Virus record (IMG/VR): IMGVR_UViG_3300049596_000773
Coordinates: 1-51,359 of that record
Source: a virus
Taxonomy: Duplodnaviria; Caudoviricetes
Length of the DNA: 51,359 nt
Strand: one strand, 5' to 3'
In this document: positions 1 through 25,944 of the stretch, one piece after another
Numbering within the stretch: the stretch's first letter is position 1
How the letters are laid out: the number at the start of each line of letters is the position of its first letter
The notes under the pieces: generated by a model
What the model was told of the DNA's origin: nothing
Databases searched by the model: none
Seen by the model: only the letters and a program-made list of their open reading frames with translations
Made by a program: the position numbers and the translations under genes

Positions 1-127
1 AGAAAAGGCTCGCTCACTGGCGAAAGAACGCGGATTCCACTTCTGATCCATGCCGGACATCTTCGATACGCTCGAAGCTCCGCCAAAGGGTGATGTCTTC
101 GATCAAATTGCCCCCGAATCCAAGGGC
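1..127. repeat. Terminal direct repeat identical to 51233-51359 (circular assembly overlap)
   Basis: The first 127 nt match the last 127 nt. The length equals a common assembler k-mer, and the ORF ending at 51278 joins the ORF starting at 50 across the junction. Confidence 0.97.
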
Positions 128-3100: not shown

Positions 3101-6100
3101 GAGCGCCGGGCGACGGGTGATGTTGTTCCAAAGGAACGCGCTGCGGAACTTAAAAAGACCGCCGAGGAATATAAGAAAGCGCAAGCCGAGGTGGACTTGG
3201 AAAGGGAGACTCGTCAAAAGCGGGACGAGGACGCGGTGATGGAAGCCGTAGTGGTCGAGATGGAAAGGGAATTGGAGGCTGCGGCGAAAACCGGAGCTAC
3301 CTATCATCCCAGCGTCATGCAGCACGCCAAGGAAATCGTGGAGCGCGCAAAAGGTGAGGCGGCGGATGCGTGGAAACGAATCCGTAGCCAAATGGGCAGC
3401 GAATCCGGCGCAGTGGGTGGTATTGGCGGACCCAAAGGAGAAGGTAATTACCTAGGCAAACCCACTAAACAGCAAATCGCTGCGAAGAATCGCGCAACCC
3501 TAATAAACGACGTTGCTCTCATTCTAAAGGCTAGGGTCTATGAGTTTGGTGTCAAGATGGCGGAGGCGGCGCAATACGTTCTTTTGAAGTCCGGCGACAT
3601 GGGTGACAGCATCCGTCCGATTCTTGCCAGAGCCGTAGCCAAGGCGAACACGATGATGGAACGGGAGCTTAATACGCGCCCGCAAAAGGTAAAAGAAGCT
3701 GTCAAAACCGGCGCGACGGCACCGGAGAAGCAGCCCAAAGCCAAGCCAACTCCAGAGTCGTATATCGACAAGGGGAAGGCGTCCGTGGTAGCTGGCGACG
3801 ATCCGCTTTACCGGAAGGAAATCGGCGAAGCGATTGATGGTGGAAATGTCACTGTCGAAACGCATAAGCTGATGAGCAGCGCGAGAAAGCTCGTTTATGA
3901 CATCGTGGTGGCGCATTGGGAGAATGGCGTGCGCGGAACTGATGCACTCATGGACGCGGCGCTCAAGACTGTGCAGGAATTTCTGCCAGATGCCACGTTG
4001 CGCGATATTCACCGGGCTTACGGCGAATACGGCAAGGTGAAGTTCCCAAACAAGGACGCTTTGAGCATGCAGCTTTCCGCCGCTTATCGGGAAACGAAGC
4101 TGATGGAGGATATTGCCCGCATGGAGAAGGACGACAAGGATGCGTTGCGTCGCGGATTTACACCGGCAAAGCCAAACCTTCGACAGCGTGAGCTTGCCAG
4201 TAAGCGTGCGGAGTTGCAAAAACTCAGGCAAGGAGAGCCATCTCCTGAAAAGTTGGCAGGAATCCAACAGGCGCGTCAAACCGCCTTGAAGAACCGGATG
4301 GAGGTCTTGGACAAGATGCTCAAGACTGGCGAAAAGCCGCCCAAAGGCCGAAAGGTGCCGGATGATGTTTTTACCGAGCAGTTGAAAAGCGAGAAGCAGG
4401 CAATGCAGGATTTGTGGAATGAAATCGAGGCAGCCAAGAATCCTCCACCACCTGAGCACATTGTTGAACTCGCCAGACTGCAAGACCGCGCCGACATCCT
4501 TCGTGACAGGCTGGCAAGAATGGAGCTGACTCAGCCAAAGGCCGAAGGAAAACCCACTGTGGATACGGCAGAGATTGCCGCTGCAAAGGCTGAAATAAAG
4601 CAGCTTTCCGACACGATGGCAGAGCTTCGCAAGCCCGTCCCGCTCTCCGACGCTCAGAAAGCGCTCGACAGCGCATTGATAGCACGCGAACGCGCCGGTC
4701 AGACCTTGGACGACATATCCACTGGCAAGGTGAAAGACCCGGCGAAGATCAAGGAGGCGCTGACGCAACTGGAAGAGGATGTTCGCCTCGAAACCGATGC
4801 GCTCAAGGCGCTGGCCGCCGAGATGCGCCGGGACGCCAAGCCAAAGAGTGATCCTGGCTATCTGAAAGAGCAGGCGCAAATCAAGGCACTCGAACGCGCC
4901 ATTGCCAGCTACGCCGAGAAAGTGGCGAAAGGTGACTTGGCCGGCAAAGGCAAGGTGCAGGGGCCGGACTCGCGCCGTGTAGCGCAGTTGAAGGCCATCC
5001 GCGATTCGCGCCGTGCCGCGTATCAGGCGGCTAGGAACGCCGGAAAGCCGGTGCTATCACCGGAACAGCGTTGGAACGCCACGCGACTAAAGGCACTGAC
5101 CAAGCGCGAGGCCGACTTTAGGGAGAAGATTCGCACCGGACAGTATGCGCGCCCTCCCAAAAGAGTTCCGCCGAAGATGGATCAAGCCACGCAGGACGCG
5201 CAAATCCGTGTGGATGCGATAAAGCAAAAGTTTCTCAAAGAGCAGTTCGATTACTACCAGAAACAACGCGCCACTAGCAAAAAGATCGTGGACGGCATCG
5301 GGCAGACGCTTCGTGCTGGCATCAATATCGTTTCCTCCACCGATTTGAGCGGATTCCGTCAAGGCATGGGCGCAACCATGATTGCTTTTGGAAAGACCGT
5401 GTTTCCGGTGGATGTCCGTCGCGGAGTTTCTGGCAAAACGCAGGTTGTTCTGACCAACCCGCTTAAATCGGCCATGATGATCCTAAAGCCGACCGCACGC
5501 ATGATTGTGGCCGGAATTTCGGAGCAAAAAGCGAGGCGCATGGAAAAGGCGAGAGAGAACCGGCCAAACGCCAAAAGCGGAGCGTATGACGCGATGGGCA
5601 TTGACCAGACAACTTTGGATACAAAGGTTCGCTCAAAGCATGAGGAAATGATGTATTCCGTTCTGGACGAATGGGCGCAGCTTCCAATACGCACCGGCTC
5701 AACCGGCAAAACCATCATCACGGCACCCGGAAAAGTTGCCGCCAAGGTTGTTCACGCATCCAACCGCGCCTTCAACACGCTGCTCAACGAAATGCGGCTG
5801 GACCTAGCCGATGCGCTTCTCGCGGAAAACTTTAGGGACCGCGCCCCGAGTCCAGCCGAATTGAAGGTGCTTGGAAACTTGGTGAACATATCCACCGGAC
5901 GCGGGAACATCAATCCAACCCTCGCCAGAGGCGCGGGGTTTGTGTTTTGGGCACCGTCACTTTTTGCCAGCCGTGTTAAGGGACTGACAATGGAACCAAT
6001 CTGGAGCATAAAGCAGCCATTCAAAGGAACAGGCCGCGCTCGCGCTGCTATTGCCAAGGACTACGCCCGCGTGATTATCAGCGGATACTTGCTCTGGAAA

Positions 6101-6568
6101 GTTGGGCAGATGTTCAGTGATGACGACGTTGACACCACTAACCCTACATCCAGCGACTTCGGCAAGATCGTTCGCGGCAACACGCGCATTGATCCGTGGG
6201 GAGGACATCAACAAGTTGCAGTTTTTGCTGCCAGAGCAATTACAGGAAAAACCACTTCCATAACCGGCAATGAGAGGGAAAACAACCTTGGCGATGTGAT
6301 TGCGAATTTCGGCAGAAACAAACTGCGACCGGACTGGGGAGCACTTTGGAACGCTTACGAAATTTACCACGACAAGCAAAGACCCGGAAGGCCGCAAACC
6401 TACTCAGAGGTTGTTGCGTCCATGTACACGCCCATGTCACTGCGCGATATTGCCGAGGTAATGCGCGACCGGGGCATGAGCGAAGGAGCGATTATCGAGG
6501 CTCTGGCCATGTTTGGCGCTGGCGTTGCTGTGTATGGCGACGAGGATGAGGCAAAGGCACGCCGATGA
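50..6568 (+). CDS. Giant (2172 aa) probable internal virion / DNA-ejection protein
   Basis: Very long Ala/Lys/Glu-rich helical ORF with three N-terminal D(I/V)FD repeats. On the circular map it follows two other low-complexity virion-type ORFs. Function is inferred from size and context. Confidence 0.65.
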   Translation: MPDIFDTLEAPPKGDVFDQIAPESKGDIFDSLAPEAVDADALAAVDEYLAASSNVTPKTSLPELITPAQPVAGPNIEGAGYVEKPLQFTAPETALGQLAKGNIPGAVGTAVGTAAGAVRESLTPILGPTEERIAAESVPWGTNPDGSVKYEYKPMADLMTRKGIFATPEMFDLAPIPPDPNDPAWEAALKAGTNQAAAFAKFGMSPGGVLMTAMGGAGALANAAKGLAPAGLGAESAGAAQIASTLAKTGKGAAGFFAVDMAAAAPEQFEQAFNAPTLQGKIEGWIGAVSSLGFSALATKHALGKPLTPAESGKVESVAEIVKGAPDAVLEAVAQPRNNFDVYSQAIAQNELIRRFKEQQAALAPEATAAAEVAATTLPSGKAGPPDPVATAAGAVKTAEAAAAAGKPFAPNIEGPITEAQYGRTLDAFDVTARMKRKPSSPAPSGTPTPEQPPSVAGALSPEPTRTEPSPVATPAAAVPEAKAAEPTQQQYDAMVAADRVKNLKRLKEERKDLISQYGNQGEKHPLGRMIGGLNPAAVKLQSIRGQIAQLERLIGETKPEKPVMTPISGTNARREMGLLYDVKFGERTGKIGKSNLGKWYAVENGEIVTQDFRTAAEARDAWAKAATPTPTPAPSPAPAAQAAVPKLREGQKQGDLLGGSEDLTLVGERVRSEAPKPKGPEPTVQQTISDALDAYGDLPSAWEHLDNQVKSLENNKANKAAITRLNAAKRKIENTLEEEARRAEVEQVDAFNTGLYELESSIKELGGIATTTGKGKGSGGELSRIAEARKGALLKLFRKNAPSHDTLREGLEERGFQFSTPDEMFMALEDSMRSGKKLYGSQFPEGYTGGPGAMGPVEAAYQAASRRILGGYNAEVEAAQIRRGQVPTVSEARKEDPVTFENAMDAIEKNPALPEKLVDDILKKEKKSITDEEQQMLTYRRAELENKMAAESERAIDPSLTPEQQAVHQTNAEVFEAQLLRAEEANRMAGTASGRALRSRQMQMNDDYTYAGLMMRERRATGDVVPKERAAELKKTAEEYKKAQAEVDLERETRQKRDEDAVMEAVVVEMERELEAAAKTGATYHPSVMQHAKEIVERAKGEAADAWKRIRSQMGSESGAVGGIGGPKGEGNYLGKPTKQQIAAKNRATLINDVALILKARVYEFGVKMAEAAQYVLLKSGDMGDSIRPILARAVAKANTMMERELNTRPQKVKEAVKTGATAPEKQPKAKPTPESYIDKGKASVVAGDDPLYRKEIGEAIDGGNVTVETHKLMSSARKLVYDIVVAHWENGVRGTDALMDAALKTVQEFLPDATLRDIHRAYGEYGKVKFPNKDALSMQLSAAYRETKLMEDIARMEKDDKDALRRGFTPAKPNLRQRELASKRAELQKLRQGEPSPEKLAGIQQARQTALKNRMEVLDKMLKTGEKPPKGRKVPDDVFTEQLKSEKQAMQDLWNEIEAAKNPPPPEHIVELARLQDRADILRDRLARMELTQPKAEGKPTVDTAEIAAAKAEIKQLSDTMAELRKPVPLSDAQKALDSALIARERAGQTLDDISTGKVKDPAKIKEALTQLEEDVRLETDALKALAAEMRRDAKPKSDPGYLKEQAQIKALERAIASYAEKVAKGDLAGKGKVQGPDSRRVAQLKAIRDSRRAAYQAARNAGKPVLSPEQRWNATRLKALTKREADFREKIRTGQYARPPKRVPPKMDQATQDAQIRVDAIKQKFLKEQFDYYQKQRATSKKIVDGIGQTLRAGINIVSSTDLSGFRQGMGATMIAFGKTVFPVDVRRGVSGKTQVVLTNPLKSAMMILKPTARMIVAGISEQKARRMEKARENRPNAKSGAYDAMGIDQTTLDTKVRSKHEEMMYSVLDEWAQLPIRTGSTGKTIITAPGKVAAKVVHASNRAFNTLLNEMRLDLADALLAENFRDRAPSPAELKVLGNLVNISTGRGNINPTLARGAGFVFWAPSLFASRVKGLTMEPIWSIKQPFKGTGRARAAIAKDYARVIISGYLLWKVGQMFSDDDVDTTNPTSSDFGKIVRGNTRIDPWGGHQQVAVFAARAITGKTTSITGNERENNLGDVIANFGRNKLRPDWGALWNAYEIYHDKQRPGRPQTYSEVVASMYTPMSLRDIAEVMRDRGMSEGAIIEALAMFGAGVAVYGDEDEAKARR

Positions 6569-8391
6569 CCGCCAAAACCAAACCAGCGCAGCGCATCAGC
6601 TACGACAACTTTGCGCTGCCGCCCGGTTATGAGCCGTGGCATCTGTGCCTGACCAAGTTCGGACTCGGCAAAGGCGAGGAAAAGCTGAAATGGTTCAAGC
6701 GTCTCGTCACTGAGCTTTGGCCGGAACCGCTTTTCATGTGGGACCGTTGGAGCGACCTGTTCTTTGGCGCGCTGTGCGGGGCGAAGGAAACCGTGGAGCG
6801 CACCATCGGCACGACGTTTGAAGCGGATTATGCGTGGTGGGAGCAACTGACAAGCACCGGGGCGGCGGGAACGGGCAAAAGCTCAAGGGCTGCGCTGTGG
6901 ATTCTCTGCAACTGGCTGTGCGCCCGCGAGCACACGACCTGCATGCTGACCTCAACCAGCGTCACCGCGCTCAAGCAGCGTATCTGGAGCGAACTGGTGG
7001 ATTGGATACAGAAGTGCAAGCAACCGTTGTCCGACCCGACGATTGGCTGGCTGCAAATCGTGCCGTCCGACACCATCATCCGGTGGAGCGGTGAGGACAC
7101 GAAAAGCGCCATCTTCGGGCGTGCCGTCGATCAGGGCGGTTCCGTGGATAACGCCGTGGGCCGCATCAAGGGTATTCACAACCGGCGCGTGTTTGTCGTC
7201 ACGGACGAAATGACGGCCATGCCCGAGGCGATTGCCAAGGCGTGCCGCAACCTGGACTCAGGCACGATGGAATTTCAGTTCATCGGGCTGGGGAACGCCA
7301 CCGATTACTCAGACCAGCACGGCATCTACTGCGAGCCGGTGAACGGCTGGAATAGCGTCACGGTGAATGACGAGTTTTGGCTGACCAAACTCGGCGGCTG
7401 TTGCGTGCATCTGGACGGGCACAAGTCGCCGTCGCTGGATGATCCGGCCAAGTTCCATTTCTACATCGGGCGCAAGAAGCTGGAAAAGGACGCACGATTC
7501 TTTGGCGGCGAGAACACGCCGGATTACTGGCGTGAGTGCCGGGGCTTTTGGGCACCGTCCGGCCTGTCCACGACGGTCATGGATGCGTTTCTGCTTTCGC
7601 AGTTCAACACCGCCGACAAAGCTGTGTGGAAGGCGCGATGGGAGATGGGCGCGGGCTTCGACGTGGCGTTTGAAGGCGGGGACCGGCGCGTGCTTTACCC
7701 GTTCAAGTTCGGAGAGTTTGCCAGCGGCGTGACGGGCATCGAGTTTCAAGCGCCGGTCATCGTGAACATCGACATGACTCAGGACAAACGCTTCATCCAC
7801 TACGGCATTGCCGCTGCCGTGGAGGAAACGTGCCGGAACTACAAGATCAACGGCCAGTCGCATCCCATCCCGCCGCGCAACCTGGCGTGCGACGTGACCG
7901 GCGAAGGCGCGGGACCGTTTGGCATCATGTCGGGAAGCTGGTCGCGCGACATCATCCCTGTGGAGTTCGGTGGCGCGGCGGAAAAGACGGCGGTATCCAC
8001 GGACAGGCCGACGACGTGGCACGAGCTTTACGGGAACAAAGTGACGGAAATCTGGTATTCAATGCGCCGGTTTATCGAGGGCGGACAGGTGCGCGGGCTG
8101 ACCGACGCCGACACGATCCGCGAGTTGACTTCCCGCGACTACATCCGCAAGGGCAACAAGACGCATGTGCTGCCAAAAAGCGAAATGAAGAAGCTCAAGG
8201 CGCGCAGCCCCGATTTGGCAGATGCGGCCTGCATAGCCGCCTTTGTGCTTCGCAAGAAAGGCATCATGCCGGCGGGCGTGGCGGACAATGTGGTGGTGGA
8301 TGCGACAGCATGGAACACGGCGGCAGAAAAGATGAATATGGAAGGGGATGAATCGGATTACGAAGATTCGACCGCAGCTTTTGCGATATGA
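6565..8391 (+). CDS. terL: Terminase large subunit
   Basis: Walker A GAAGTGKS, Walker B VFVVTDE, coupling motif FIGLGN, nuclease acidic motifs FDVAFEGGD and SPDLADA. Confidence 0.92.
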   Translation: MTAKTKPAQRISYDNFALPPGYEPWHLCLTKFGLGKGEEKLKWFKRLVTELWPEPLFMWDRWSDLFFGALCGAKETVERTIGTTFEADYAWWEQLTSTGAAGTGKSSRAALWILCNWLCAREHTTCMLTSTSVTALKQRIWSELVDWIQKCKQPLSDPTIGWLQIVPSDTIIRWSGEDTKSAIFGRAVDQGGSVDNAVGRIKGIHNRRVFVVTDEMTAMPEAIAKACRNLDSGTMEFQFIGLGNATDYSDQHGIYCEPVNGWNSVTVNDEFWLTKLGGCCVHLDGHKSPSLDDPAKFHFYIGRKKLEKDARFFGGENTPDYWRECRGFWAPSGLSTTVMDAFLLSQFNTADKAVWKARWEMGAGFDVAFEGGDRRVLYPFKFGEFASGVTGIEFQAPVIVNIDMTQDKRFIHYGIAAAVEETCRNYKINGQSHPIPPRNLACDVTGEGAGPFGIMSGSWSRDIIPVEFGGAAEKTAVSTDRPTTWHELYGNKVTEIWYSMRRFIEGGQVRGLTDADTIRELTSRDYIRKGNKTHVLPKSEMKKLKARSPDLADAACIAAFVLRKKGIMPAGVADNVVVDATAWNTAAEKMNMEGDESDYEDSTAAFAI

Positions 8392-11690: not shown

Positions 11691-12853
11691 GCACCACCAT
11701 CGCGGAAGCACCGCCAGCCGAAAACAAGCCAAGCCCGTTTCATGCGGCGCTGGAAAATGCGTTCAAGGGAGACGACGCGCCACCTGTCGAAACCAAACCG
11801 GAAGCAGTCGCCAAGCCTGCCGAGGCTGCTAAGGAAAGCTCTAAGTCGGTTCCTGACACACTGTTCAAGAAGCCGGACGCCGACGCGAAGCCGCCCGAAG
11901 AAGCGCCGCCAGCCAAAGCTGCTGCGGATGAAATCGCCGAGCCGCCAAAGCTGGACGCCAAGGGCAAGGCAGGGTGGGAGGCGTTGAAGAAAACGGCGCG
12001 AGAAGAGGCGACCAAGCGGGCGGAACTTGAGAAGCAAATAGAGGAGTGGAAATCCAAAGGCCGCGATCCTGAGACGCTGGAAAAGCAGCTTGCCGAGCGC
12101 GACAAGAAGCTGTCTGAATACGAGACTAAGGTGGCGCGGGTTGACCTGGAATCGAGCGAGAGTTTCCAGCGCGAAATCGTAGAACCGCGCAACCGCGAGA
12201 TGCAACGCGCCAAAGCATTTGCCGAAGAAATCGACGCAAACCCGGAGGAACTGACTGCGGCACTGTCACTGACCGGAAAGGCGCGGGCCAACGCGCTGCG
12301 CGATCTGGCGCTTGACCTTGACCCGGTGCAAAGCGGTCGGCTTGGCCGCATCATTGAGAAGATGGACGAGTTGCATGAGCGCGCCGAGTCGGAGCGGGCC
12401 AATGCCAAGACGTATTTGGAACAGCGCACGGAACGCGAGCGTCTGGACAAGCTGGCCGAGCATGGCGAGTTCGTAAAAACCAAGTTCTTGCAATTCGAGG
12501 ACACGACCAAGCGGCTCAAGGCGCGGCTGGAAATCCTAAACCAAGTGGACGGTCACGAAGATTGGAACACCAAGTCAAAGGCCGTTGTGGAAAGCGCCCG
12601 CGCTTACATTCAGGAAAATCCCTACGCCGATGTGGAGGCGGTGATTGAGGCGAAGGCCATGCCGGTTTATCGTGAACTGTTTCTGGAAACTCGCGAACGC
12701 GAGGCGGCACTGGAATCAAAGGTTGCTGAAATGGAGAAGGAACTGAAAGCGATTCATGGACGTTCACCGTCTCTGACGCAGCGCGGGGCAGCGGCAGAAG
12801 TTGGCAACAAGAAGCCGTTTAGCTCCATGATTGCGGAGGCGTTCGGGCAATGA
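11687..12853 (+). CDS. Capsid scaffolding protein (probable)
   Basis: P/A/E/K-rich N-terminus and charged coiled coil; lies between portal and capsid. Confidence 0.7.
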   Translation: MSTTIAEAPPAENKPSPFHAALENAFKGDDAPPVETKPEAVAKPAEAAKESSKSVPDTLFKKPDADAKPPEEAPPAKAAADEIAEPPKLDAKGKAGWEALKKTAREEATKRAELEKQIEEWKSKGRDPETLEKQLAERDKKLSEYETKVARVDLESSESFQREIVEPRNREMQRAKAFAEEIDANPEELTAALSLTGKARANALRDLALDLDPVQSGRLGRIIEKMDELHERAESERANAKTYLEQRTERERLDKLAEHGEFVKTKFLQFEDTTKRLKARLEILNQVDGHEDWNTKSKAVVESARAYIQENPYADVEAVIEAKAMPVYRELFLETREREAALESKVAEMEKELKAIHGRSPSLTQRGAAAEVGNKKPFSSMIAEAFGQ

Positions 12854-12862
12854 ATACTAACG

Positions 12863-12939
12863 ACATACCGACCCCAAGCTCAGCGACTGCGGAGGCGAGT
12901 CCGCGAGCCGAAGCAGTTCGCTGGAGCGCATGGTTGGGC
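12863..12939 (-). mobile_element. attC-like site (attC-a)
   Basis: Minus strand reads GCCCAAC-catgc-GCTCCAGCGAAC...GTCGCTGAGC-ttggggtc-GGTATGT: R'', bulged L boxes and a variant R'. Confidence 0.75.
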
Positions 12940-12954
12940 GACGTTGGATTGCGG

Positions 12955-13284
12955 CTAGAATCCGTCATCTGTAAAAGTGTCTGGAGGATCGCTTTTGTCC
13001 GCAAAGTCGTTCCATCGCTGCTTATCATTATTCGCCTGCGCTTCCTTGAACTTCGCATGTTCTTGTTGAAGCTCCAGATGTGTTGCGAGCAGCGCCGAAT
13101 TGCGAAGTTCTGCCGTCTCAAGGCTGATAACGAGCGATTCATTTCTAGCCTTCAATTCGGAAAAAGACCTGTCAAACGCAGCGGCTTGGTCACGTATGCT
13201 GATAACTTTCGGTTTCCATTCTGAAACAGATGCGCCGCTGGTGAATATACCATCAAGAAAATCAATTAGGTCTGCGGATGTCAT
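12955..13284 (-). CDS. Gene-cassette-borne hypothetical coiled-coil protein (109 aa)
   Basis: The only antisense gene inside the head operon; bracketed by two attC-like sites, with its stop codon 15 nt before R''. Confidence 0.7.
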   Translation of the reverse strand: MTSADLIDFLDGIFTSGASVSEWKPKVISIRDQAAAFDRSFSELKARNESLVISLETAELRNSALLATHLELQQEHAKFKEAQANNDKQRWNDFADKSDPPDTFTDDGF

Positions 13285-13322
13285 AATATGAATAAATCGA
13301 ACGAGATGCAGGGTGCTCAGTC

Positions 13323-13390
13323 GCCTAAAAAACAAGCTCAGCGAATGGCGAAGCGAAGCGGAGCCGGTTCGCTGGAGCGTGCTGGTATGT
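13323..13390 (-). mobile_element. attC-like site (attC-b), degenerate R' (TTTAGGC)
   Basis: Minus strand reads ACATACC-agcac-GCTCCAGCGAAC...TTCGCTGAGC-ttgttt-TTTAGGC. Confidence 0.7.
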
Positions 13391-13403
13391 CTGGAGGAAA
13401 GCC

Positions 13404-18530: not shown

Positions 18531-20303
18531 ATGGCGACCATCACCGTAACGACGTTCTGGAACATGGATTCGCGGAAGTGGACGAGCGACCTGCTTGGCA
18601 CCACGGAGCAAGGACCGTTGGCCGGCCTCGTCCAGGGTGACATCGTGAAGTTCGCCGTGCGGTTCGTGCAAGGCGGCGTAGCGGTGGCGCTGACTGCCCC
18701 GGTCTTCACCGCATCTGGCATAAAGGCGTTGAACGACTTCACCGGCGGCTACCTCATCCAGCTTTCCGCGCCTGTCCTGAGCGACACCACGCTCTATACT
18801 TTCACCGTCTCGCCGCTTAACAGCGCGCAACTGAACACGTTTTTGCAGACGTATCGGAATACGTGGTGTGCGCTGGAACTTTACGACAGCGCCAACGGCA
18901 TACTCACGACTCCATTGGAACTGCAAATCACGCCGGGATACAGCCTGAGCGGGACGCCGACGGACAATGTGGATGGCGTAATTGTCGTCGCCGCTGGCAA
19001 GACCGTAACATTCCCGCTCTCGCTCACGTTCCCGAGCGCGGCGGGGACGAATGGCTACAAGCTGACCACCGACGGCGCAACAACGCTGAGTTGGACGGCT
19101 GACAATGCTGGGGCACCCGGAGGCAGTAACACACAGGTTCAATACAACAACAACGGCGCTTTTGGAGGCTATGCCATCAGCGGCACCGGCAGCGTGGCGA
19201 TGACGACAAGCCCGAGTTTCACCACGCCGAGCTTGGGCGCGGCCACGGCGACGAGCATCAATGGTATCACGATCACAGGCTCGGGCACGCTCACGATGGA
19301 GGGCAGCATCAACACCAGCGTCAACGGCGGATATATCAACACTGGTGGCAACGGAAGTGCTTTTGGTGGCAACATTGACACTTCTAGTGATATAGGAAAC
19401 CAAGCTGGCGGCTCCATTAACACCAGCGGCGGCAGCAGCGGAGCAGGCGGCAGCATAAACACCAGCAACGGTGGCGGAAACATTGACACCACGGCAGGCG
19501 GCAGCATCATCACCGGAGCAGGCGCACTGACTGGCCCAGCCGGCGGCGGCACCATCGCGCTGACTAGCGACATCACCGGCGGCACGCTGGCGGGGAGCTT
19601 CACCACGCTGGCGGTCAACGGGAAAAGCCTGACGCTCGGCGCAAACTTAACCACCAGCGGCACCGACCTCCCGACGTTCGCTTTCCCATCGGCGGCAACG
19701 GCGCGCACCTACACCTTCCCGACGACCACTGCGACGCTGGCGCGCACCGATGCGGCGCAGACGCTCACCGCGACGCAAACCATCTCCGAATCAACGGACA
19801 GGAACGGAGCTGCAGCAGGGGCATCACTGACCATTAGCGGGGCGGCATCCGTAGGGCCAGCCTTTAAGATGTCCACCACTGCGGCAGGCACGTTTAGTGT
19901 ATTTGTCCATGCCACAAACGGGCATACATACGTCGGCACAGCATCGGGTTCGCTTATTGTGACGAGCGGAGTCAACAGCAGTGGATCAACCATGTTCTCG
20001 GTCACAAGTGGCGGCGCTTTTTCCATACCTGGCACGCTCGCCGTCACCGGAGCCACCACGCTGACCGGACTGCTTACGGCCAATGGCGGAATCACACTTG
20101 GAGACGCGCAGAACATCGCGGTCAACACCACGACCGGCACGAAGATTGGCACGGCTACCACGCAGAAGATCGGATTCTGGAATGTCACTCCAGTAGTGCA
20201 ACCAGCCGCCGTGGCGGACAGTAGCGGCGTGCTGATGGACCTGACCACGCAATTCAACGCACTACTCGCCAGACTCCGATCCGCCGGAATAATCGCCACC
20301 TAA
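18531..20303 (+). CDS. Tail fibre / receptor-binding protein
   Basis: Gly/Thr/Ser-rich, with repeated GGxI(N/D)T units, an NTQVQYN motif and the C-terminal NALLARLRSAGII typical of phage fibres. Confidence 0.75.
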   Translation: MATITVTTFWNMDSRKWTSDLLGTTEQGPLAGLVQGDIVKFAVRFVQGGVAVALTAPVFTASGIKALNDFTGGYLIQLSAPVLSDTTLYTFTVSPLNSAQLNTFLQTYRNTWCALELYDSANGILTTPLELQITPGYSLSGTPTDNVDGVIVVAAGKTVTFPLSLTFPSAAGTNGYKLTTDGATTLSWTADNAGAPGGSNTQVQYNNNGAFGGYAISGTGSVAMTTSPSFTTPSLGAATATSINGITITGSGTLTMEGSINTSVNGGYINTGGNGSAFGGNIDTSSDIGNQAGGSINTSGGSSGAGGSINTSNGGGNIDTTAGGSIITGAGALTGPAGGGTIALTSDITGGTLAGSFTTLAVNGKSLTLGANLTTSGTDLPTFAFPSAATARTYTFPTTTATLARTDAAQTLTATQTISESTDRNGAAAGASLTISGAASVGPAFKMSTTAAGTFSVFVHATNGHTYVGTASGSLIVTSGVNSSGSTMFSVTSGGAFSIPGTLAVTGATTLTGLLTANGGITLGDAQNIAVNTTTGTKIGTATTQKIGFWNVTPVVQPAAVADSSGVLMDLTTQFNALLARLRSAGIIAT

Positions 20304-20309
20304 AAACCA

Positions 20310-20744
20310 ATGAAAGACCTATTCACAATTCAAACCGAATCCGGCCAGCTATGGCTCGACATCAAAGCGCAGCTTGACGCGAAAGACGCGCAACTCGCCG
20401 ACCAAGCCACTGAAACGAACCTCGCGCGCCAAGCTGCCACCGACGCTCACGCTGCCGCGCTGGCCGCGCTGGCAGACCAGCACGCCGCAGCTCTCGCACA
20501 AGCCGCAACCGACCAAGCCGCCGCTGTGGAGGCCGCGAAGCTCGCAATCCAAACCAACCTTGACGCGCTCGTGACTGCCGCCGAAACCGCACACGCCAGT
20601 GGCGACTTGGATGCCGTCGCAGCGGTCATCGCGCAAGCCCGCTCCTACACCACCGCAGCGCGCCGGGCGAAGATCGAGGCAGACCTCGCCGCCGCACAGG
20701 CCGCTGCCGCCGCACACGCCGCCGCGCTCGCCGCTCTCGCATGA
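20310..20744 (+). CDS. Ala-rich coiled-coil hypothetical protein
   Basis: ATG just after the fibre stop; ATGA overlap with the downstream gene. Confidence 0.65.
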   Translation: MKDLFTIQTESGQLWLDIKAQLDAKDAQLADQATETNLARQAATDAHAAALAALADQHAAALAQAATDQAAAVEAAKLAIQTNLDALVTAAETAHASGDLDAVAAVIAQARSYTTAARRAKIEADLAAAQAAAAAHAAALAALA

Positions 20745-21412
20745 GCGACGAAACCCACATCGGCGACGCAGCGGTGCGCGAAGGAGTAGCCTACGGCGTC
20801 GGACTGCTTCTGTCCGGGATCGTCGCGTGGCTGGCGCTGGCGAGAAAGCGCATCGCGCAATGGTGGAACGCCGGAAAGGTAGAGCGCGCAGAAAGCGCTG
20901 CCGCGATGCGCTCAATCGCGGAATCGCTCAAAACTCTATCCGCCGATTTCCGCGAGAAGTCCGCGAAGGACGATGAGATCATCGCGACGATTCGGGACGG
21001 CTTTCGCGCTCTTCTGGACGGGCATCGCGTGAACGCCAAAATGGCCGAACTGGCTCTCGAAAGCTCGCCAACTCCGATGTGGAGATGCGACGCGGAAGGC
21101 AATGCCGAATGGGTCAATCCGGCATGCGCGACTTATTTTGGTTTGCCAGTGCGCGAAATGCTGGGCAGCGGATACCAGGCGCGAATCCATCCCGACCATC
21201 GAAGGAAAGTCCGCGAGGCTCTTGACCGGACCATTATGTATCACGAGCCGTATAACGTGGAGTATGCAGTGAGGGGGGAACGAAGCTGGAAAAACAGCTT
21301 CGCCAGCGGCAAGCCGATTTTGTCCGAGGACGGCAAGACGCTGCTCGGCATCCTAGGGATTGTGGAGCCGGTGGACGCCACCACGGAGCGACCGGAGGAA
21401 GACGCCGCCTAG
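20741..21412 (+). CDS. Membrane-anchored PAS-domain protein
   Basis: N-terminal TM helix, coiled coil, then the PAS signature WRCDAEG..WVNPA..YFG....MLG.GY...IHPDHR. Confidence 0.75.
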   Translation: MSDETHIGDAAVREGVAYGVGLLLSGIVAWLALARKRIAQWWNAGKVERAESAAAMRSIAESLKTLSADFREKSAKDDEIIATIRDGFRALLDGHRVNAKMAELALESSPTPMWRCDAEGNAEWVNPACATYFGLPVREMLGSGYQARIHPDHRRKVREALDRTIMYHEPYNVEYAVRGERSWKNSFASGKPILSEDGKTLLGILGIVEPVDATTERPEEDAA

Positions 21413-21446
21413 TCTCGGGCCAGGTTCAGCCCGCGAAAACTTTCCG

Positions 21447-21474
21447 TTGACAGGCGCATAAGCGGGGGCAAAGT
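21447..21474 (+). promoter_or_regulatory. Possible sigma70-type promoter driving the cassette array
   Basis: Perfect TTGACA at 21447 with a weak -10 (CAAAGT), upstream of ATG 21485. Confidence 0.4.
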
Positions 21475-21484
21475 GGGGTCACTT

Positions 21485-21865
21485 ATGAGCGGCATTAAAT
21501 CGGGCGACATTGTGAATTGGCGCACAACAAACGGGCGTGGAAATCCATGCTCACGCCGGGCTGAGGTGTATTTCGCGCCACAAAGCGATACGGTCATGCT
21601 TTACGTCTATGGTCTCAAAAAGCTCAAGCGGGTGCCGCTGTCTGAGGTTCGCGCTATACGCACAGCACAGCCTAAAGTGGAAGCCGTCGCGGAAACCGTG
21701 AAGCGAATGGACTGCCCGAGTGTGATGCGCGAGCACCTGTGGAGCATCGAGCGTGAAGGCATGATCGAATGCCTGTGGTGCTTCCAGAGGCGTCGCTCGG
21801 AGGATAGAGAGCGGCATACCGTGCGCGGTCAACGACTGGCGCAAGAGACGCCACCGAATGCCTGA
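21485..21865 (+). CDS. Hypothetical protein ending inside attC1
   Basis: ORF with a CxxC motif; its TGA lies in the attC1 loop. Confidence 0.55.
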   Translation: MSGIKSGDIVNWRTTNGRGNPCSRRAEVYFAPQSDTVMLYVYGLKKLKRVPLSEVRAIRTAQPKVEAVAETVKRMDCPSVMREHLWSIEREGMIECLWCFQRRRSEDRERHTVRGQRLAQETPPNA

Positions 21866-21946
21866 AACCTTTCGCGCCAGTTCGCTGCACCAAGTGGGTC
21901 GGCGTGTCTGGCGCACGTAACCAAACGCGCGAAGAGCCAAACTAAT

Positions 21947-22189
21947 ATGAAGACACTGCAACCAGAAGAAACAATGTATGCCCTCTACTGCCGACTGGAC
22001 AACAGCCGGGAGTGGTGGGCGCAAGAGACGACCAAAAGCAAGGAGGATGCTGAATACTGGCTCAAGCGAAACCGCGAGCGAGAGACCGGGCGGGTGTATG
22101 TGCTCGTGAAGAAAGTGACGACGTTTGAAGTCATCGACGGCGCGGACTCGGAAGCGCCAGATTCGCCGACCGTGGGAGATCAGAGATGA
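21947..22189 (+). CDS. Cassette hypothetical protein (80 aa)
   Basis: Between attC1 and attC2; ATGA junction inside attC2. Confidence 0.65.
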   Translation: MKTLQPEETMYALYCRLDNSREWWAQETTKSKEDAEYWLKRNRERETGRVYVLVKKVTTFEVIDGADSEAPDSPTVGDQR

Positions 22190-22515
22190 TCGCCGTCCAA
22201 GACATTCCAGATTCAGTGAAAGCTCGCCTCGGCGATCATTCTCTGGATCGACTGGGTAGGTATCTGGAGCGGCGCGCTGCTAACTGTGAGACTGGGAGAA
22301 AGGTATGCCGCGACATGGAGCGGCCGTGGAGCCCGCCTGTGCCGCTCACTGACTCCGAAATAATGGAAATATCCTACAACCTCGACAAGGCGGGCGCGGC
22401 GGAGGAACGACGTGAACGGCGAGCCGCGAAGAAAGCTGAGAACCAGCGGCGCTGCGAGGCCGGGAAGATACCTAACGCAAAGATCAGCGGCGAGACGCCG
22501 CGCCAAGACCTATGA
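22186..22515 (+). CDS. Cassette hypothetical protein (109 aa)
   Basis: Starts in attC2 and stops in attC3. Confidence 0.6.
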   Translation: MIAVQDIPDSVKARLGDHSLDRLGRYLERRAANCETGRKVCRDMERPWSPPVPLTDSEIMEISYNLDKAGAAEERRERRAAKKAENQRRCEAGKIPNAKISGETPRQDL

Positions 22516-22745
22516 AAAACACGACAGACTCAAAACGCGGCGACTCGTTCGCTGCATCGCCGGGTTCGGCAAATAACGGTGAATCGAAGTGGGCGTGGAT
22601 GATGAGATGGTGCCGGGAGAAAGGCGTGTCGCCAGCCAACGCAGCCATGTGGGAACTGGCTGAGAAACGGTGGATCGAAGCTAATTCGCCGAACGTCTCA
22701 AGCTCAGCGGCGACGCCGGGCGAAAGGAGCACCGATGTCCGCTGA
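22512..22745 (+). CDS. Cassette hypothetical protein (77 aa)
   Basis: Starts in attC3 and stops in attC4. Confidence 0.6.
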   Translation: MKNTTDSKRGDSFAASPGSANNGESKWAWMMRWCREKGVSPANAAMWELAEKRWIEANSPNVSSSAATPGERSTDVR

Positions 22746-23553
22746 CCTCCCAAGCCCGGAGTCGTCCGCTGGAGCGCGTGGTTATACCCCGTTGGACGTG
22801 AGCGCCGCGTCGAATCGGGAATTGGAGTGGGAGGCAGGTGCGGAGCTTCGTCCCTACTACCATGCCGAAGGCATCACCATCTTTCACGGCGACTGCCGCG
22901 CGATACTGCCGCGCCTCAAAAAGCTCGACCTGCTCTGCACCGACCCTCCCTACGGAATCGGCTTCGCCGCGATGCCAACCAAGTGGCAGCGCCGCGCCGG
23001 AAAGCAGGCCGAAGCGTGGGACGATGACAGCGCCGAGGAATGGCTGATCGGCATGGCTCGCTCAAAAGCCGAGCGGCAAATCATCTGGGGCGGCAACTAC
23101 TACGACCTCCCGCGCGCCCGGTGCCTGCTCTCGTGGTATAAGCCGGACGCGCCGCCGAGCATGGGCAACGTGGAATACGCCTGGACGAACCTGAACCAAA
23201 ACTCCCGGCAAATCTCGCACTCGATAAGCGCCACGAACGCGGAGCGGCTGGGGCACCCAACGCAAAAGCCGCTGCGCGTGATGCTCTGGACGCTCGGCCA
23301 AGTGAGCGAGGTAAAGAGCGTGCTCGACCCGTGGATGGGAAGCGGGACCACGCTGCGCGCCGCGAAAGACTTGGGACTTCGCGCCATCGGAATTGAGCGC
23401 GAGGAAAAATACTGCGCTATGGCTGTCGAACGACTCGCGCAAAGTGTTCTGTCTTTGGGGGCGGGGGTTGGAGAGTGCGACGCGAACGGCAGTGCGGAAA
23501 AGGGGTATAACGAAAAAGCTGAGCCGCACGCTGGGCTAGGAGGGCCATCGTGA
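22735..23553 (+). CDS. DNA methyltransferase (N6A/N4C, beta class)
   Basis: TDPPYG, HPTQKP, LDPWMGSGTT and IGIE motifs in beta-class order. Confidence 0.92.
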   Translation: MSADLPSPESSAGARGYTPLDVSAASNRELEWEAGAELRPYYHAEGITIFHGDCRAILPRLKKLDLLCTDPPYGIGFAAMPTKWQRRAGKQAEAWDDDSAEEWLIGMARSKAERQIIWGGNYYDLPRARCLLSWYKPDAPPSMGNVEYAWTNLNQNSRQISHSISATNAERLGHPTQKPLRVMLWTLGQVSEVKSVLDPWMGSGTTLRAAKDLGLRAIGIEREEKYCAMAVERLAQSVLSLGAGVGECDANGSAEKGYNEKAEPHAGLGGPS

Positions 23554-24482
23554 GCGCGCAAACTATCCCAGCCCAGAGTGTCGGCTCCAGCGCGTGGTTA
23601 GAGCCCATTCGCGGAGACGGCGCGCCGCACGCAGAATCCGAAGGGGTGGGGGGACTTCGTAAATACTCCGCCGCAGGCCTGACCTTGTATCTCGGCGACT
23701 GGCGCGAGCATCGCGACCTGCTCGCGGGCGTGGATGCGGTAGTGACTGATCCGCCGTATGGATTCGGCTACGACCCGGCGCGAAGCCGCAAGGCCGTGAA
23801 CGTGCAAAGGGGACTGGCGCTCGTTGATCGCGATTGGGCGCAGATTGAAGGCGAAGCCGAGGAGTTCGACCCGCGCCCGCTGATTGATCTCGCGCCGGTC
23901 GTGGTGCTCTGGGGAGCGAACCACTACGCGCACCGGCTGCCGAGCAGCAAGCGGTGGTTCGTGTGGGACAAGCGGGATGGGGTGGCGAGCGACAACCAAT
24001 CTGACGCGGAAATGGCGTGGTGCAATGTCGGTGGCTCCGTGCGGCTGCACCGCCAGCTCTGGCGCGGAATCGCGCGGGCGGGCGAGGAGAACATCGCCAC
24101 GGCTGGCGCGAAGCTGCACCCGCACCAAAAACCGGTCGCGCTGATGGCATGGTGCATGGAGCACGCGAAAATCCCGGTCGGCGCGCTGGTAGCTGACCCG
24201 TATTTCGGGAGCGCCTCGACTGCGATTGCGTGCCTTCGTACGCAACGGCGTTTCGTGGGATTCGAGATTGATCAAGCTCACTTTGACACGGCGGTTGCGA
24301 GGATTCACGGCGAGCTTTCGCAACGGGATTTCTTCACGGGCGGCGGGGGTGGATTTTTGCCTTTAACACCGTCGCCCGAACAGCCGCGCTTGGGCTCTAA
24401 CGAAAAGGTCAGCGACTCGCCGCCGCTGGCTTCCAACAACACGAAAACCGCGAACGGCGAGTTCGCTGCACCGCTTGGTTAG
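23550..24482 (+). CDS. Second DNA methyltransferase (N6A/N4C, beta class)
   Basis: TDPPYG, HPHQKP, ADPYFGSAST and VGFEID motifs. Confidence 0.9.
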   Translation: MSAQTIPAQSVGSSAWLEPIRGDGAPHAESEGVGGLRKYSAAGLTLYLGDWREHRDLLAGVDAVVTDPPYGFGYDPARSRKAVNVQRGLALVDRDWAQIEGEAEEFDPRPLIDLAPVVVLWGANHYAHRLPSSKRWFVWDKRDGVASDNQSDAEMAWCNVGGSVRLHRQLWRGIARAGEENIATAGAKLHPHQKPVALMAWCMEHAKIPVGALVADPYFGSASTAIACLRTQRRFVGFEIDQAHFDTAVARIHGELSQRDFFTGGGGGFLPLTPSPEQPRLGSNEKVSDSPPLASNNTKTANGEFAAPLG

Positions 24483-24495
24483 GCGCGATTGACTT

Positions 24496-24813
24496 ATGAT
24501 AACATACGGAACACCAGAATGGGAAAACCGACAGAGATACAGAACGTATCAATGGAACCAACTCAGAAAACGGTTGATTCGCGATGCGTGTAAAACGTGC
24601 CAGCGATGCCGCGAGCGAAGCTACGGATATGCGGCAAAAGCAAATCCATTGCAAGTTCATCACACCTACTACTTGCGCGACAAGAATCATGCGCCGTGGG
24701 ACTACCCTGACTCTTGCTTTTTGGTGCTTTGCAAGAAATGCCACGAACGCGAGCACGCAACCAACTCGGTTCACTATTATGACGCACACCCGCACGCAAG
24801 ACGTATCGCCTAA
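24496..24813 (+). CDS. HNH endonuclease-like cassette protein
   Basis: CQRC...LQVHH...LCKKCHEREH. Confidence 0.8.
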   Translation: MITYGTPEWENRQRYRTYQWNQLRKRLIRDACKTCQRCRERSYGYAAKANPLQVHHTYYLRDKNHAPWDYPDSCFLVLCKKCHEREHATNSVHYYDAHPHARRIA

Positions 24814-24822
24814 CCACAGAAT

Positions 24823-25137
24823 ATGCGAAGAATGAAATCTTTTTGGCAGCGCAAGCGCGTGAAGACATGCGCGAAAATGCAGCGGTGGCGCGATGCCAAG
24901 GAGCGCAAGCGGCTCGCGTCTGATGAACTTGTTCGAGTCGAATGGCGCGGCAGGCTTGAACATTCCATCACCTTCCACAATCGACTGACCGGCGAAATGC
25001 ACACGTTGGACTTGCGACGCGGAAAACGGCGCGACCAATTCGCCGCCGAGGTGGACGGCAAGCCGTGGCGCGTGCTATCAGCAACGCAGCTTGGCAAGCT
25101 GATCCGAGACAAATTCAAACCGCACATAAGAGAATGA
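24823..25137 (+). CDS. Basic hypothetical protein
   Basis: ORF immediately after the array; ATGA overlap with the downstream gene. Confidence 0.55.
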   Translation: MRRMKSFWQRKRVKTCAKMQRWRDAKERKRLASDELVRVEWRGRLEHSITFHNRLTGEMHTLDLRRGKRRDQFAAEVDGKPWRVLSATQLGKLIRDKFKPHIRE

Positions 25138-25292
25138 AAAAAACCCGATACCCCAACAACATCAAACTAGGCGTGACCAAGCCGCAAGCCGCGTGGATAA
25201 AGCGCGAAGCAAAGGCGCGAGCACTCAGCGAAGCGCAGGTCGTCAGAACGGCTGTTGACCACGCTCGCGGATGCGTTACGGTGCATCAGTGA
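25134..25292 (+). CDS. Ribbon-helix-helix (CopG/Arc-like) DNA-binding protein
   Basis: IKLGVT strand followed by helix-helix AAWIKREAK..LSEAQVVRTAV. Confidence 0.6.
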   Translation: MKKTRYPNNIKLGVTKPQAAWIKREAKARALSEAQVVRTAVDHARGCVTVHQ

Positions 25293-25768
25293 ACCGCCTC
25301 GCCCTACTTGCGGCAATCCTCCTTGCATCATGCCAAAGCGCACCCGTAAAAGCCCGCAAGATCATGGCCCCGGTGGCAGCGAAAGCGGCCAAGGCGGGCA
25401 AGATCGTCGCAAAGCAGACCGGCAGCATCGGGCGATTGAAGGCAAGCGTGGCGGAGTCCGTGGAGGTAGCGGAAAAGCTGAACAAGGAACGCCCGGACGG
25501 CGACACAGCGCGGCTAATCCTTTCCCTCCGCATCGCCGCGTCGGAGACGGATGCGCTTCGTGGATCGAATGAAGAACTCAGACTCACAATCAGCGGAATG
25601 GAGGTCGCCATCGCACAAGCCCAGGACAAGATGGCCGTTGAGATCGCCGGGGCTGAGACGTGGAGGACGTGGGCGTGGCGGTGGTGGTGGGCTTTCGCAG
25701 GCACGGTTGCCAGCGTCGCCGCGCTGGTCTATTTTCGCGCTCAAATCCCATTCCTGAAATTCCTATGA
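25289..25768 (+). CDS. Lipoprotein with coiled coil and C-terminal TM (spanin-like)
   Basis: Signal peptide with lipobox LASC; C-terminal hydrophobic helix; lies in the lysis cluster. Confidence 0.55.
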   Translation: MNRLALLAAILLASCQSAPVKARKIMAPVAAKAAKAGKIVAKQTGSIGRLKASVAESVEVAEKLNKERPDGDTARLILSLRIAASETDALRGSNEELRLTISGMEVAIAQAQDKMAVEIAGAETWRTWAWRWWWAFAGTVASVAALVYFRAQIPFLKFL

Positions 25769-25944
25769 AATTCCCAATACTCGCCGCCGCTCTGCTCTTC
25801 ACCGGCTGCTCAAGCCTCACCACGCGCGAAGCCGACCGCACATGGGAAAGCGTCGGCGAGCCGTGGACGCAACGCCCGCCGACCGGGCCCGACACGGAAC
25901 GCACCGTTGACGCGGACGGAAACCCAAATTTCGGACCGCGATGA
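25765..25944 (+). CDS. Small lipoprotein (o-spanin-like)
   Basis: MKFPILAAALLFTGC lipobox and a Pro-rich tail. Confidence 0.55.
   Translation: MKFPILAAALLFTGCSSLTTREADRTWESVGEPWTQRPPTGPDTERTVDADGNPNFGPR

Follow-up and report, generated by a model that had tools for sequence, protein, structure and literature searches.

An array of attC sites in a phage genome

The window analyzed in this study is the whole 51,359-bp stretch of IMG/VR virus record IMGVR_UViG_3300049596_000773 (Duplodnaviria; Caudoviricetes), a lake-water phage genome with direct terminal repeats and a completeness rating of 100% whose genes include those for a large terminase, an endolysin, a replication initiator, and a DnaC-like loader. 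Between positions 21813 and 24486, a range slightly wider than that given in a preliminary description made from the sequence alone, it carries an array of six hairpins with the anatomy of attC sites, the recombination sites of integrons, set among co-directional small open reading frames (ORFs), two paralogous N6/N4 DNA methyltransferase genes (22735-23553 and 23550-24482), and an HNH gene. A second array, of two attC sites, occupies 12864-13392. No PF00589 or TIGR02249 candidate was found at an E value of up to 1 in the 51-kb window, and the array does not have intI and attI beside it as a complete integron would. Since the phage is without a tyrosine recombinase, the array is a CALIN (cluster of attC sites lacking integrase) and not a complete integron. 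Likewise, TIGR02249 gave no match at an E value of up to 0.001 in five other array-bearing virus records, three of which are at least 98% complete and three of which encode a large terminase.

All features of the array lie on the + strand, and the stop and start codons of successive genes fall inside the sites. Site s1 (21813..21905; 72.7 bits against the covariance model described below) has its left box at 21814-21820, with ACC at 21818-21820, and its right box at 21897-21903. Its loop holds the TGA (21863-21865) that ends ORF 21473-21865 and the ATG at 21858 that opens a mini-ORF of 20 codons (21858..21920), which reads through the 3' arm and the right box to a TAA at 21918-21920, 27 nucleotides (nt) before the ATG at 21947. 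From the latter starts the cassette 1 gene (21947..22189; 80 amino acids [aa], no family), whose last five codons, after the ACC at 22169-22171, are predicted to belong to the next cassette. These codons lie in s2 (22163..22263; left box 22165-22171, right box 22255-22261; 82.4 bits), in which an ATGA junction at 22186, inside the long stem of the fold, joins cassette 1 to the cassette 2 gene (22186..22515; 109 aa, no family). In s3 (22468..22572; left box 22470-22476 with AAC at 22474-22476, right box 22564-22570; 80.8 bits), the ATGA junction at 22512 is in the loop and starts the cassette 3 gene (22512..22745; 77 aa, no family).

The remaining three sites bracket the methyltransferase genes. 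The loop of s4 (22686..22789; left box 22688-22694, right box 22781-22787; 84.9 bits) contains AAGGAG at 22722-22727, an ATG at 22735, and the TGA at 22743-22745 that ends cassette 3. This ATG opens methyltransferase 1, the cassette 4 gene (22735..23553; 272 aa; PF01555, 2.9e-17; phrog_67, 1.7e-36), which takes its N-terminal ~18 aa from the s4 3' arm and its last 13 codons from s5 (23503..23605; left box 23505-23511, right box 23597-23603; 84.7 bits). The s5 loop carries TAGGAGG and the GTGA junction at 23550, the start of methyltransferase 2, the cassette 5 gene (23550..24482; 310 aa; PF01555, 6.1e-16). The two enzymes are paralogous, with direct repeats D3, D4, and D7 at a spacing of 806-824. 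The last 26 codons of methyltransferase 2 span all of s6 (24393..24486; left box 24395-24401, right box GTTAGGC at 24478-24484; 79.7 bits), which has its stop/start position not in a loop or stem but in the right box, and whose loop has no start codon. The junctions are thus placed in the loop in s1, s3, s4, and s5, in the stem in s2, and in the right box in s6.

The unit after s6 (24401-25137) consists of the HNH endonuclease gene (24496..24813; phrog_119, 3.4e-10) and ORF 24823-25137. No closing left box was found for it before homology of the phage backbone to relatives restarts at 25134, exactly on an ATGA junction.

The junction coordinates of the preliminary description (ATGA at 22186 and 22512, ATG 22735 with TGA 22743-22745, and GTGA at 23550) were all correct, as were the stop and the mini-ORF in s1, and every junction indeed lies between the two boxes of its site. 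Its claim that protein termini are encoded by the arms of the sites is borne out by the same data. That methyltransferase 2 reads through s6 to a TAG (24480-24482) within GTTAGGC is also right, with the reservation that this box, taken then as the core, is the one at which we do not predict crossover.

Anatomy of the sites

The sites share a motif of ~26 nt on the + strand, found at six places in the main array and at two at 12.9 to 13.4 kb, each with its complement upstream. Because its reading frame differs between the two methyltransferases, what is conserved in the motif is the DNA and not the peptide. The idea that the repeats are mere remnants of the methyltransferase duplication (direct repeat D1, spacing 816 nt) was considered and rejected, as the frames differ between the paralogues and the motif recurs at unrelated genes.

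A covariance model built from the eight window sites, which is a model of a single attC family, scored these sites at 52 to 84.9 bits (E values of 5e-15 to 5e-26), all on the + strand, while the next best + strand match in the 51 kb reached 13.2 bits. RNAalifold gave 23 consensus pairs, 17 of them with compensatory changes. Paired cells amounted to 90.1%, versus 66.6% in shuffled alignments, none of 500 of which reached the observed value, and 28 to 42% with slid partners. The 5' half of every site consists of a 7-nt box, 5 to 7 unpaired nt, a stem, and a variable loop of 12 to 46 nt, and the 3' side has 5 unpaired nt followed by a box that begins with GTT (five sites) or GGT (three sites). 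The left box of the eight sites ends in AAC in four, ACC in two, GAC in one, and AAA in one; across the family, it ends in AAC in 106 of 119 viral and 119 of 134 genome sites. Two bases bulge from the 3' arm, a T in all eight sites and a second base that is G in four and C in four, always separated by 6 bp and located, counting back from the + strand 3' end, at positions 23 and 16.

The sites thereby show the pairing terminal boxes (RYYYAAC/GTTRRRY), the unpaired central spacer, and the extrahelical bases of attC sites, and their box-to-box length of 67 to 101 nt falls within the 57 to 141 nt of attC sites with their variable terminal structure. In the bottom strand of attC, the extrahelical bases are described as lying opposite the AAC arm, with a base at position 16 that is usually G, a T at position 23/24, and a stem of 6 bp separating the two (Nivina 2016, PMC5027507), and the bulge geometry in the window matches this bottom-strand description.

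A further hallmark of attC is complementarity between the boxes of one cassette. The 16 to 18 nt located 3' of each site are the complement of a sequence that runs up to and ends within the next left box, for instance 21897-21914 with 22154-22171 and 23597-23614 with 24384-24401 (inverted repeats I1 and I3; 18 nt at 89% each). Over 16 positions, cognate flanks matched at 11.8 on average in the window versus 7.0 for random pairs, at 10.6 versus 7.4 (standard deviation, 1.9) in viral arrays, and at 9.3 versus 7.4 in bacterial arrays. Such complementarity would be expected if each unit had once been a circle closed within the box.

The second array has the same build. Site a1 (12864..12941, + strand; 55.8 bits) is traversed whole by ORF 12850-13224 (124 aa, no family), the start codon of which is 14 nt upstream of the a1 left box, and a2 (13321..13392, + strand; 52 bits) is in an intergenic gap before a GTG at 13404. 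The left flank of a2 is complementary to the right flank of a1, and the two sites bound one cassette. The hairpin interior of a1 is identical (1.0) to one in viral locus L030, with unrelated flanks.

Two weak model matches were excluded from the site counts. One is the 13.2-bit match mentioned above (6575-6634; E value, 0.05), which directly follows the ATGA junction between the large terminase gene and an ORF of 2172 aa at the left genome end (50-6568) for which no PHROG match was obtained. The other (21610-21717; 9.1 bits) lies in the middle of ORF 21473-21865 and may be a decayed attC site that is now read through. This ORF is mosaic in comparison with the related locus L017: its first 28 codons and 21692-21821 are common to both, and its middle is not.

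The same attC family beside integron integrases

A pattern scan with the motif picked out 97 viral stretches and at least 120 stretches in GTDB genomes. Searching these with the model at E values of up to 1e-5 yielded 129 viral matches in 38 sources (37 viral loci and the window), with up to 8 per locus, and 134 genome matches, which came from 44 of the 80 loci searched. Counted by title, 33 of these 44 loci bear the names of lineages that we take to belong to Verrucomicrobiota. In three metagenome-assembled genomes (MAGs), two of which are titled as Verrucomicrobiota lineages, an array lies 542 to 865 nt from the 5' end of intI. Two of the intI genes match TIGR02249 at 473 and 440 bits (cutoff, 265), with a single internal TGA in the 440-bit match; the third gene is broken into two frames. 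In every case the array flanks intI on its 5' side and the model matches share the strand of intI; on the 3' side, no model match was found within 20 kb in the three MAGs.

Nine pairs of phage and bacterial hairpins are at least 93% identical. On sequence grounds, the phage sites are members of an attC family that sits beside real IntI genes, a link by association only. Together with the anatomy, this upholds the identification of the sites as attC in the preliminary description. The host of the phage is probably a member of Verrucomicrobiota, and Verrucomicrobia are listed among the integron-bearing phyla (Cury 2016, PMC4889954).

Three loci from Verrucomicrobiota-type MAGs (L105, L180, and L230) carry long arrays of 10 to 14 sites in 8 kb, and the MAG with the split intI (G002) has a second array ~770 kb away from it. 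Contigs with the same attC family were also binned in MAGs titled Klebsiella, Bifidobacterium, and Gloeobacterales (L168, L137, and L151), probably through binning errors.

Genes coded on the bottom strand

Three independent lines of sequence evidence indicate that the coding strand of the phage is the bottom, recombinogenic strand of attC. The first is the bulge geometry described above. The second is the direction of the arrays in the three MAGs, in which the top strand points away from intI and attI. The third is the strand of the genes in bacterial arrays. Of 98 bacterial inter-site intervals, 49 were open only on the strand opposite to the model and 3 only on the model strand, while among 80 viral intervals the numbers were 3 and 20. 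A stop-free frame across the whole interval was seen on the opposite and model strands in 24 versus 1 bacterial intervals and in 4 versus 20 viral ones. Where viral intervals were open on both strands, the G+C content at third codon positions (GC3) favored the model strand in 18 cases and the opposite strand in 2.

The phage cassettes are therefore inverted relative to classical cassettes, in which the top strand carries the ORF and attC follows at the 3' end of the ORF; the ORFs of the window are on the model strand, that is, the bottom strand. The preliminary description took the phage genes to be coded on the usual strand of a cassette, with the right GTT box as the core, an assumption that is not supported by the bulge geometry, the polarity of the arrays with respect to intI, or the polarity of bacterial ORFs. 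If the coding strand is the bottom strand, crossover is predicted in the left box, at AA|C, and not at the right GTT core.

Cutting the array at these points gives the predicted units 21820-22170, 22171-22475, 22476-22693, 22694-23510, 23511-24400, and one from 24401. Each predicted unit would comprise a hairpin with a start codon inside it and a gene body, so that the C-terminal codons of the preceding protein fall in the next unit. The ORFs that enter s1 to s6 extend 14, 5, 12, 16, 13, and 26 codons past the predicted crossover, respectively.

Reading phase is locked at the left box

At all six sites of the main array in the window, the ORF that enters the site has AAC or ACC as an in-frame codon. 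To score phase in the related phage arrays together with the window, we used junctions with exactly one frame open from -150 to +12, which set aside 54 viral and 3 window sites as ambiguous. AAC was found in the three phases 64/3/3 times at 70 junctions from 28 loci, and clustering of the upstream 150 nt left this almost unchanged (62/3/3 of 68 clusters). The left box closes only one alternative phase, by the TAA in ..TAAC, and the other stays open; the bias is therefore not an artifact of stop codons. In contrast, the GTT box is distributed 27/25/23 over the phases (44 sites ambiguous), and the conserved 5' arm, only 9 to 11 nt past AAC, is distributed 32/14/24, a spread due to the variable length of the spacer. 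Phase is thus locked only at the predicted crossover. The reading frame at the core, which according to the preliminary description may be under selection, is nonrandom at AAC when tabulated across related phage arrays and random at GTT.

The hairpins themselves complement this phase. A first phase-0 stop precedes the right box in 102 of 119 viral hairpins, at a median of 36 nt after AAC, versus 62 and 57 for the other phases; in the 134 sites of bacterial arrays, the same measure gave 57, 61, and 43. For the 107 viral ORFs with a length of at least 180 nt and an end close to a site, the stop is in the loop in 47, before the left box in 20, in the left box in 17, in the 5' arm in 12, in the 3' arm in 5, in the right box in 3, and after the site in 3.

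The arrangement of stop and start codons inside hairpins, noted at first for the window, recurs in the related phage arrays. In all, 59 of 119 viral sites, versus 12 of 134 bacterial ones, contain the stop of a phase-0 ORF and are left by another ORF with a length of at least 150 nt. At 30 of these 59 viral sites the two ORFs overlap by NTGA, at 1 they overlap at -1, and at 15 they are within 12 nt of each other. The window has three NTGA overlaps and one 11-nt overlap. A relay of ribosomes across the hairpins by translational coupling, as proposed in the preliminary description, is a reasonable inference from this pattern.

Turnover of cassettes and their cargo

Six related viral loci (L017, L054, L075, L082, L088, and L095) contain parts of the flanks 20034-21557 and 25134-25770 at 87 to 99% identity; only L095 spans both flanks. 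Between the flanks, these relatives have only 21692-21821 and the s4 hairpin in common with the window, and the homology of L017 stops just after the s1 left box. L095 shows the same chain of ORFs running from loop to loop with other genes, including, after its s4-like hairpin, a short leader ORF comparable to the s1 mini-ORF. The gene directly 5' of the array (20741-21412) encodes a PAS-domain protein (PF08447, 4.7e-09), which is unusual in a phage and is kept in related contigs.

In three lake metagenomes, contigs cover the flanks at a depth of 14 to 27 and the window array at a depth of 3 to 8, and another array variant therefore dominates on the same backbone in those lakes. Among the sequencing runs listed as containing this sequence were 24 of lake or freshwater DNA and none of RNA.

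Near-identical hairpins (at least 93%) with unrelated flanks are common, at 71 pairs, and such hairpins likewise predominate in bacterial arrays (58 pairs), as they do in other chromosomal integrons. A comparison of segments (upstream flank, interior, and downstream flank) offered only four informative pairs, with mixed results, and of 14 events defined by the ends of megablast alignment blocks, none was within 8 nt of a box.

For the cargo, 80 distinct ORFs from phage arrays were compared with Pfam, most of them without a match. Counted per family and not per ORF, the matches were four N6_N4 methyltransferases, two C5 methylases, two Mom, two Methyltransf_11, one MT-A70, one PAPS reductase, one MazG-like protein, one polymerase-beta-like protein (two domains), and two further single matches to families of methyltransferase domains. 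We take the cargo to serve DNA modification and probably counter-defense.

A proposed model for exchange and expression

The reading that we favor, and consider fairly probable, is that the array is an integron CALIN coded on the attC bottom strand, whose units are exchanged at AA|C by the IntI of the host and whose genes are expressed by read-through. Our confidence in the structural claims is good and that in the mechanism is moderate. On the coding strand, a unit would run from the C of the left box through spacer, 5' arm, loop, 3' arm with its two bulged bases, spacer, right box, and gene body to the first six bases (..AA) of the next left box. Host IntI would fold and cut the + strand at AA|C, and units could in this way be excised, inserted, and exchanged, moving between co-infecting phages, prophages, and perhaps host arrays.

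The array would be transcribed along with the phage operon. A ribosome on gene n might then pass the junction with AAC in frame, melt the 5' arm of the next hairpin, terminate in its loop at a stop that overlaps or abuts the start of gene n+1, and reinitiate there. Where a Shine-Dalgarno (SD) sequence or a start codon is held in a stem, initiation would be tied to the upstream ribosome. Since units all end in one phase and phage hairpins offer a stop in that phase, any unit could follow any other. On exchange, only a C-terminal tail (5 to 26 codons in the window) would alter, which supports the swapping of C-terminal tails envisaged in the preliminary description.

Possibly, this model can be extended, although we regard the extension as tentative: Verrucomicrobiota phages may keep an integron-cassette class of their own, in which attC is the 5' module of a gene, lies on the recombinogenic strand, and holds both the stop of the prior gene and the start of its own, cassettes end in AA, IntI is borrowed from the host, and counter-defense genes are shuffled. 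With AA in codon positions 1 and 2 at every cassette end, any order would be translatable. The genes shuffled would be those for DNA methyltransferases, Mom, and the like. Conceivably, phage transcription could drive the shuffling, as the recombinogenic strand would be the nontemplate strand and thus be exposed.

Several observations weigh against exchange at AA|C with coupled expression. The viral loci were found with a motif from the window, so that a single attC family was sampled. Within the window, the first bulge is a G in only four of the eight sites, and an exact AAC is present in four of eight. The ORFs are open frames and not gene calls, and 50 to 54 of the 119 viral sites were ambiguous and excluded from the phase counts. 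SD-like motifs precede only 18 of 53 viral loop starts (3 of 4 in the window), and for methyltransferase 1 an alternative in-frame GTG at 22798, downstream of s4, is possible as a start. Contigs of four sequencing runs mirror the L017-type variant, with no clean deletion of a cassette at AA|C among them. Finally, a model of exchange purely at AA|C is at odds with two natural mosaics. One is the s4 hairpin, which is 98% identical in L017, L054, L088, and L095 (95.8% in L082), with unrelated DNA on both sides. The other is the body that loci L014 and L043 have in common, which has its own right box and the following left box as its limits, both neighboring hairpins being only family-similar. Concerted evolution of hairpins or occasional top-strand events may account for these two cases.

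The alternative that survives best, although we consider it unlikely, is that the sites are attC relics from a host integron on which IntI no longer acts, that exchange occurs by homologous recombination in the family-conserved hairpin arms, in the manner of the classical linker model for mosaic phages, and that the overlaps reflect operon compaction. The abundance of near-identical hairpins with unrelated flanks is in line with this, as are the lack of an integrase in any of the six phage records tested and the breakpoint in L014/L043, which is within the conserved 3' arm and not at the box. Overlaps of 4 nt between genes are, moreover, frequent in phage operons. However, the phase lock is specific to AAC and is gone 9 to 11 nt further on, at the very arm where homologous exchange would act. 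Box complementarity between cognate flanks is as strong in phage as in bacterial arrays, and the L017 homology stops at the left box. The inverted polarity and the phase-0 stop in the hairpin are specific to phages and occur in many unrelated cassettes, which argues for long selection within phages and not for accidental capture.

We consider still less probable the geometry that underlay the preliminary description, in which the coding strand is the top strand, crossover occurs at G|TT in the right box, a unit is a body with its downstream hairpin, and N-terminal heads are swapped. The complementarity of right and left flanks fits either geometry, and some of the mosaics are as this one would have it: the right box and body that follow the s4 hairpin in L017 are not those that follow it in the window, and the common block of L014 and L043 starts ~10 nt before the right box. 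Against this stand the bulges on the arm opposite AAC, which mark the bottom strand, the identity of model strand and intI strand in three integrons with the array on the 5' side of intI, and the coding of bacterial arrays of the same family on the other strand. Furthermore, the phase of GTT is random even though ORFs start in the loops, so that two-thirds of swaps at this box would cause a frameshift, whereas AAC is locked.

That the hairpins are mainly RNA-level elements for processing, stability, or translation control, with a secondary likeness to attC, seems hardly tenable: folds computed with RNA energy parameters do bury the s4 SD sequence and the s2 start codon in stems, and all sites are on the transcribed sense strand, but bacterial integrons with IntI have sites of the same family around their cassettes on the antisense strand, the box complementarity across gene bodies has no RNA-level rationale, and no Rfam family matched anywhere in the window at gathering thresholds.

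Relation to known systems

Phage CALINs, as attC arrays without intI, have been published for virulent and temperate phages; IntI1 was found to recombine phage attC sites, and cassettes encoding N6_N4 DNA methyltransferases were read as anti-restriction genes (Qi 2023, PMC9892861). The window array resembles these CALINs in lacking intI and in carrying N6_N4 DNA methyltransferase cassettes. It differs in that the cassette orientation was there called typical of bacterial arrays and in that the hosts were of other phyla. Section 3.4 of that paper reports no bottom-strand coding, loop start codons, or frame rule, although its supplementary tables may bear on orientation.

Sedentary chromosomal integrons, which comprise IntI, attI, and homogeneous attC families such as the Vibrio repeats, likewise have similar hairpins among unrelated cassettes and boxes that are complementary across the cassette (Cury 2016, PMC4889954), and, as in such integrons, the attC family of the window phage is itself found beside IntI in three MAGs. 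Whereas the genes of bacterial arrays occupy the top strand and for the most part have both ends between sites, those of the phage occupy the bottom strand and extend from one loop to the next.

The TAG in s6 and the s1 mini-ORF are reminiscent of ORF-11 of attI1 in class 1 integrons, which spans the crossover, takes an in-phase stop (the TAG in GTTAGGC) from the neighboring cassette, and brings about translation of the next gene through coupling (PMC8876359). ORF-11, as described there, is a single attI case of a leader peptide on the top strand, whereas in the phages every attC x attC junction is crossed by full-length genes, which lie on the bottom strand and follow a phase rule valid for the whole family. 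Synthetic attC sites have been built into coding sequence, since their function depends on structure and they can be placed within other sequence (Nivina 2020, PMC7439510). Those sites are engineered; the phage case would be a natural and systematic use of the same freedom. In the literature searched, apart from supplementary files, we found no report of bottom-strand coding, of attC-loop starts as a rule, or of an AAC phase lock in phages.

Implications

Integrons are bacterial gene-capture devices in which the recombination site is the untranslated tail of a cassette. The phages described here use the same site family in reverse: the site leads the gene and is translated, and dozens of unrelated cassettes keep the predicted swap point in a single phase. 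If units are indeed exchanged at AA|C, a virus could replace anti-restriction genes without disrupting a tightly coupled operon, and there would be a natural precedent for frame-preserving recombination sites that are defined by structure and lie inside coding sequence. Likewise, the phage cassette pool would be antisense to the cassette promoter when placed in a host integron. Such a system would also offer a new angle on how attC becomes attached to genes and on what sets the polarity of cassettes.

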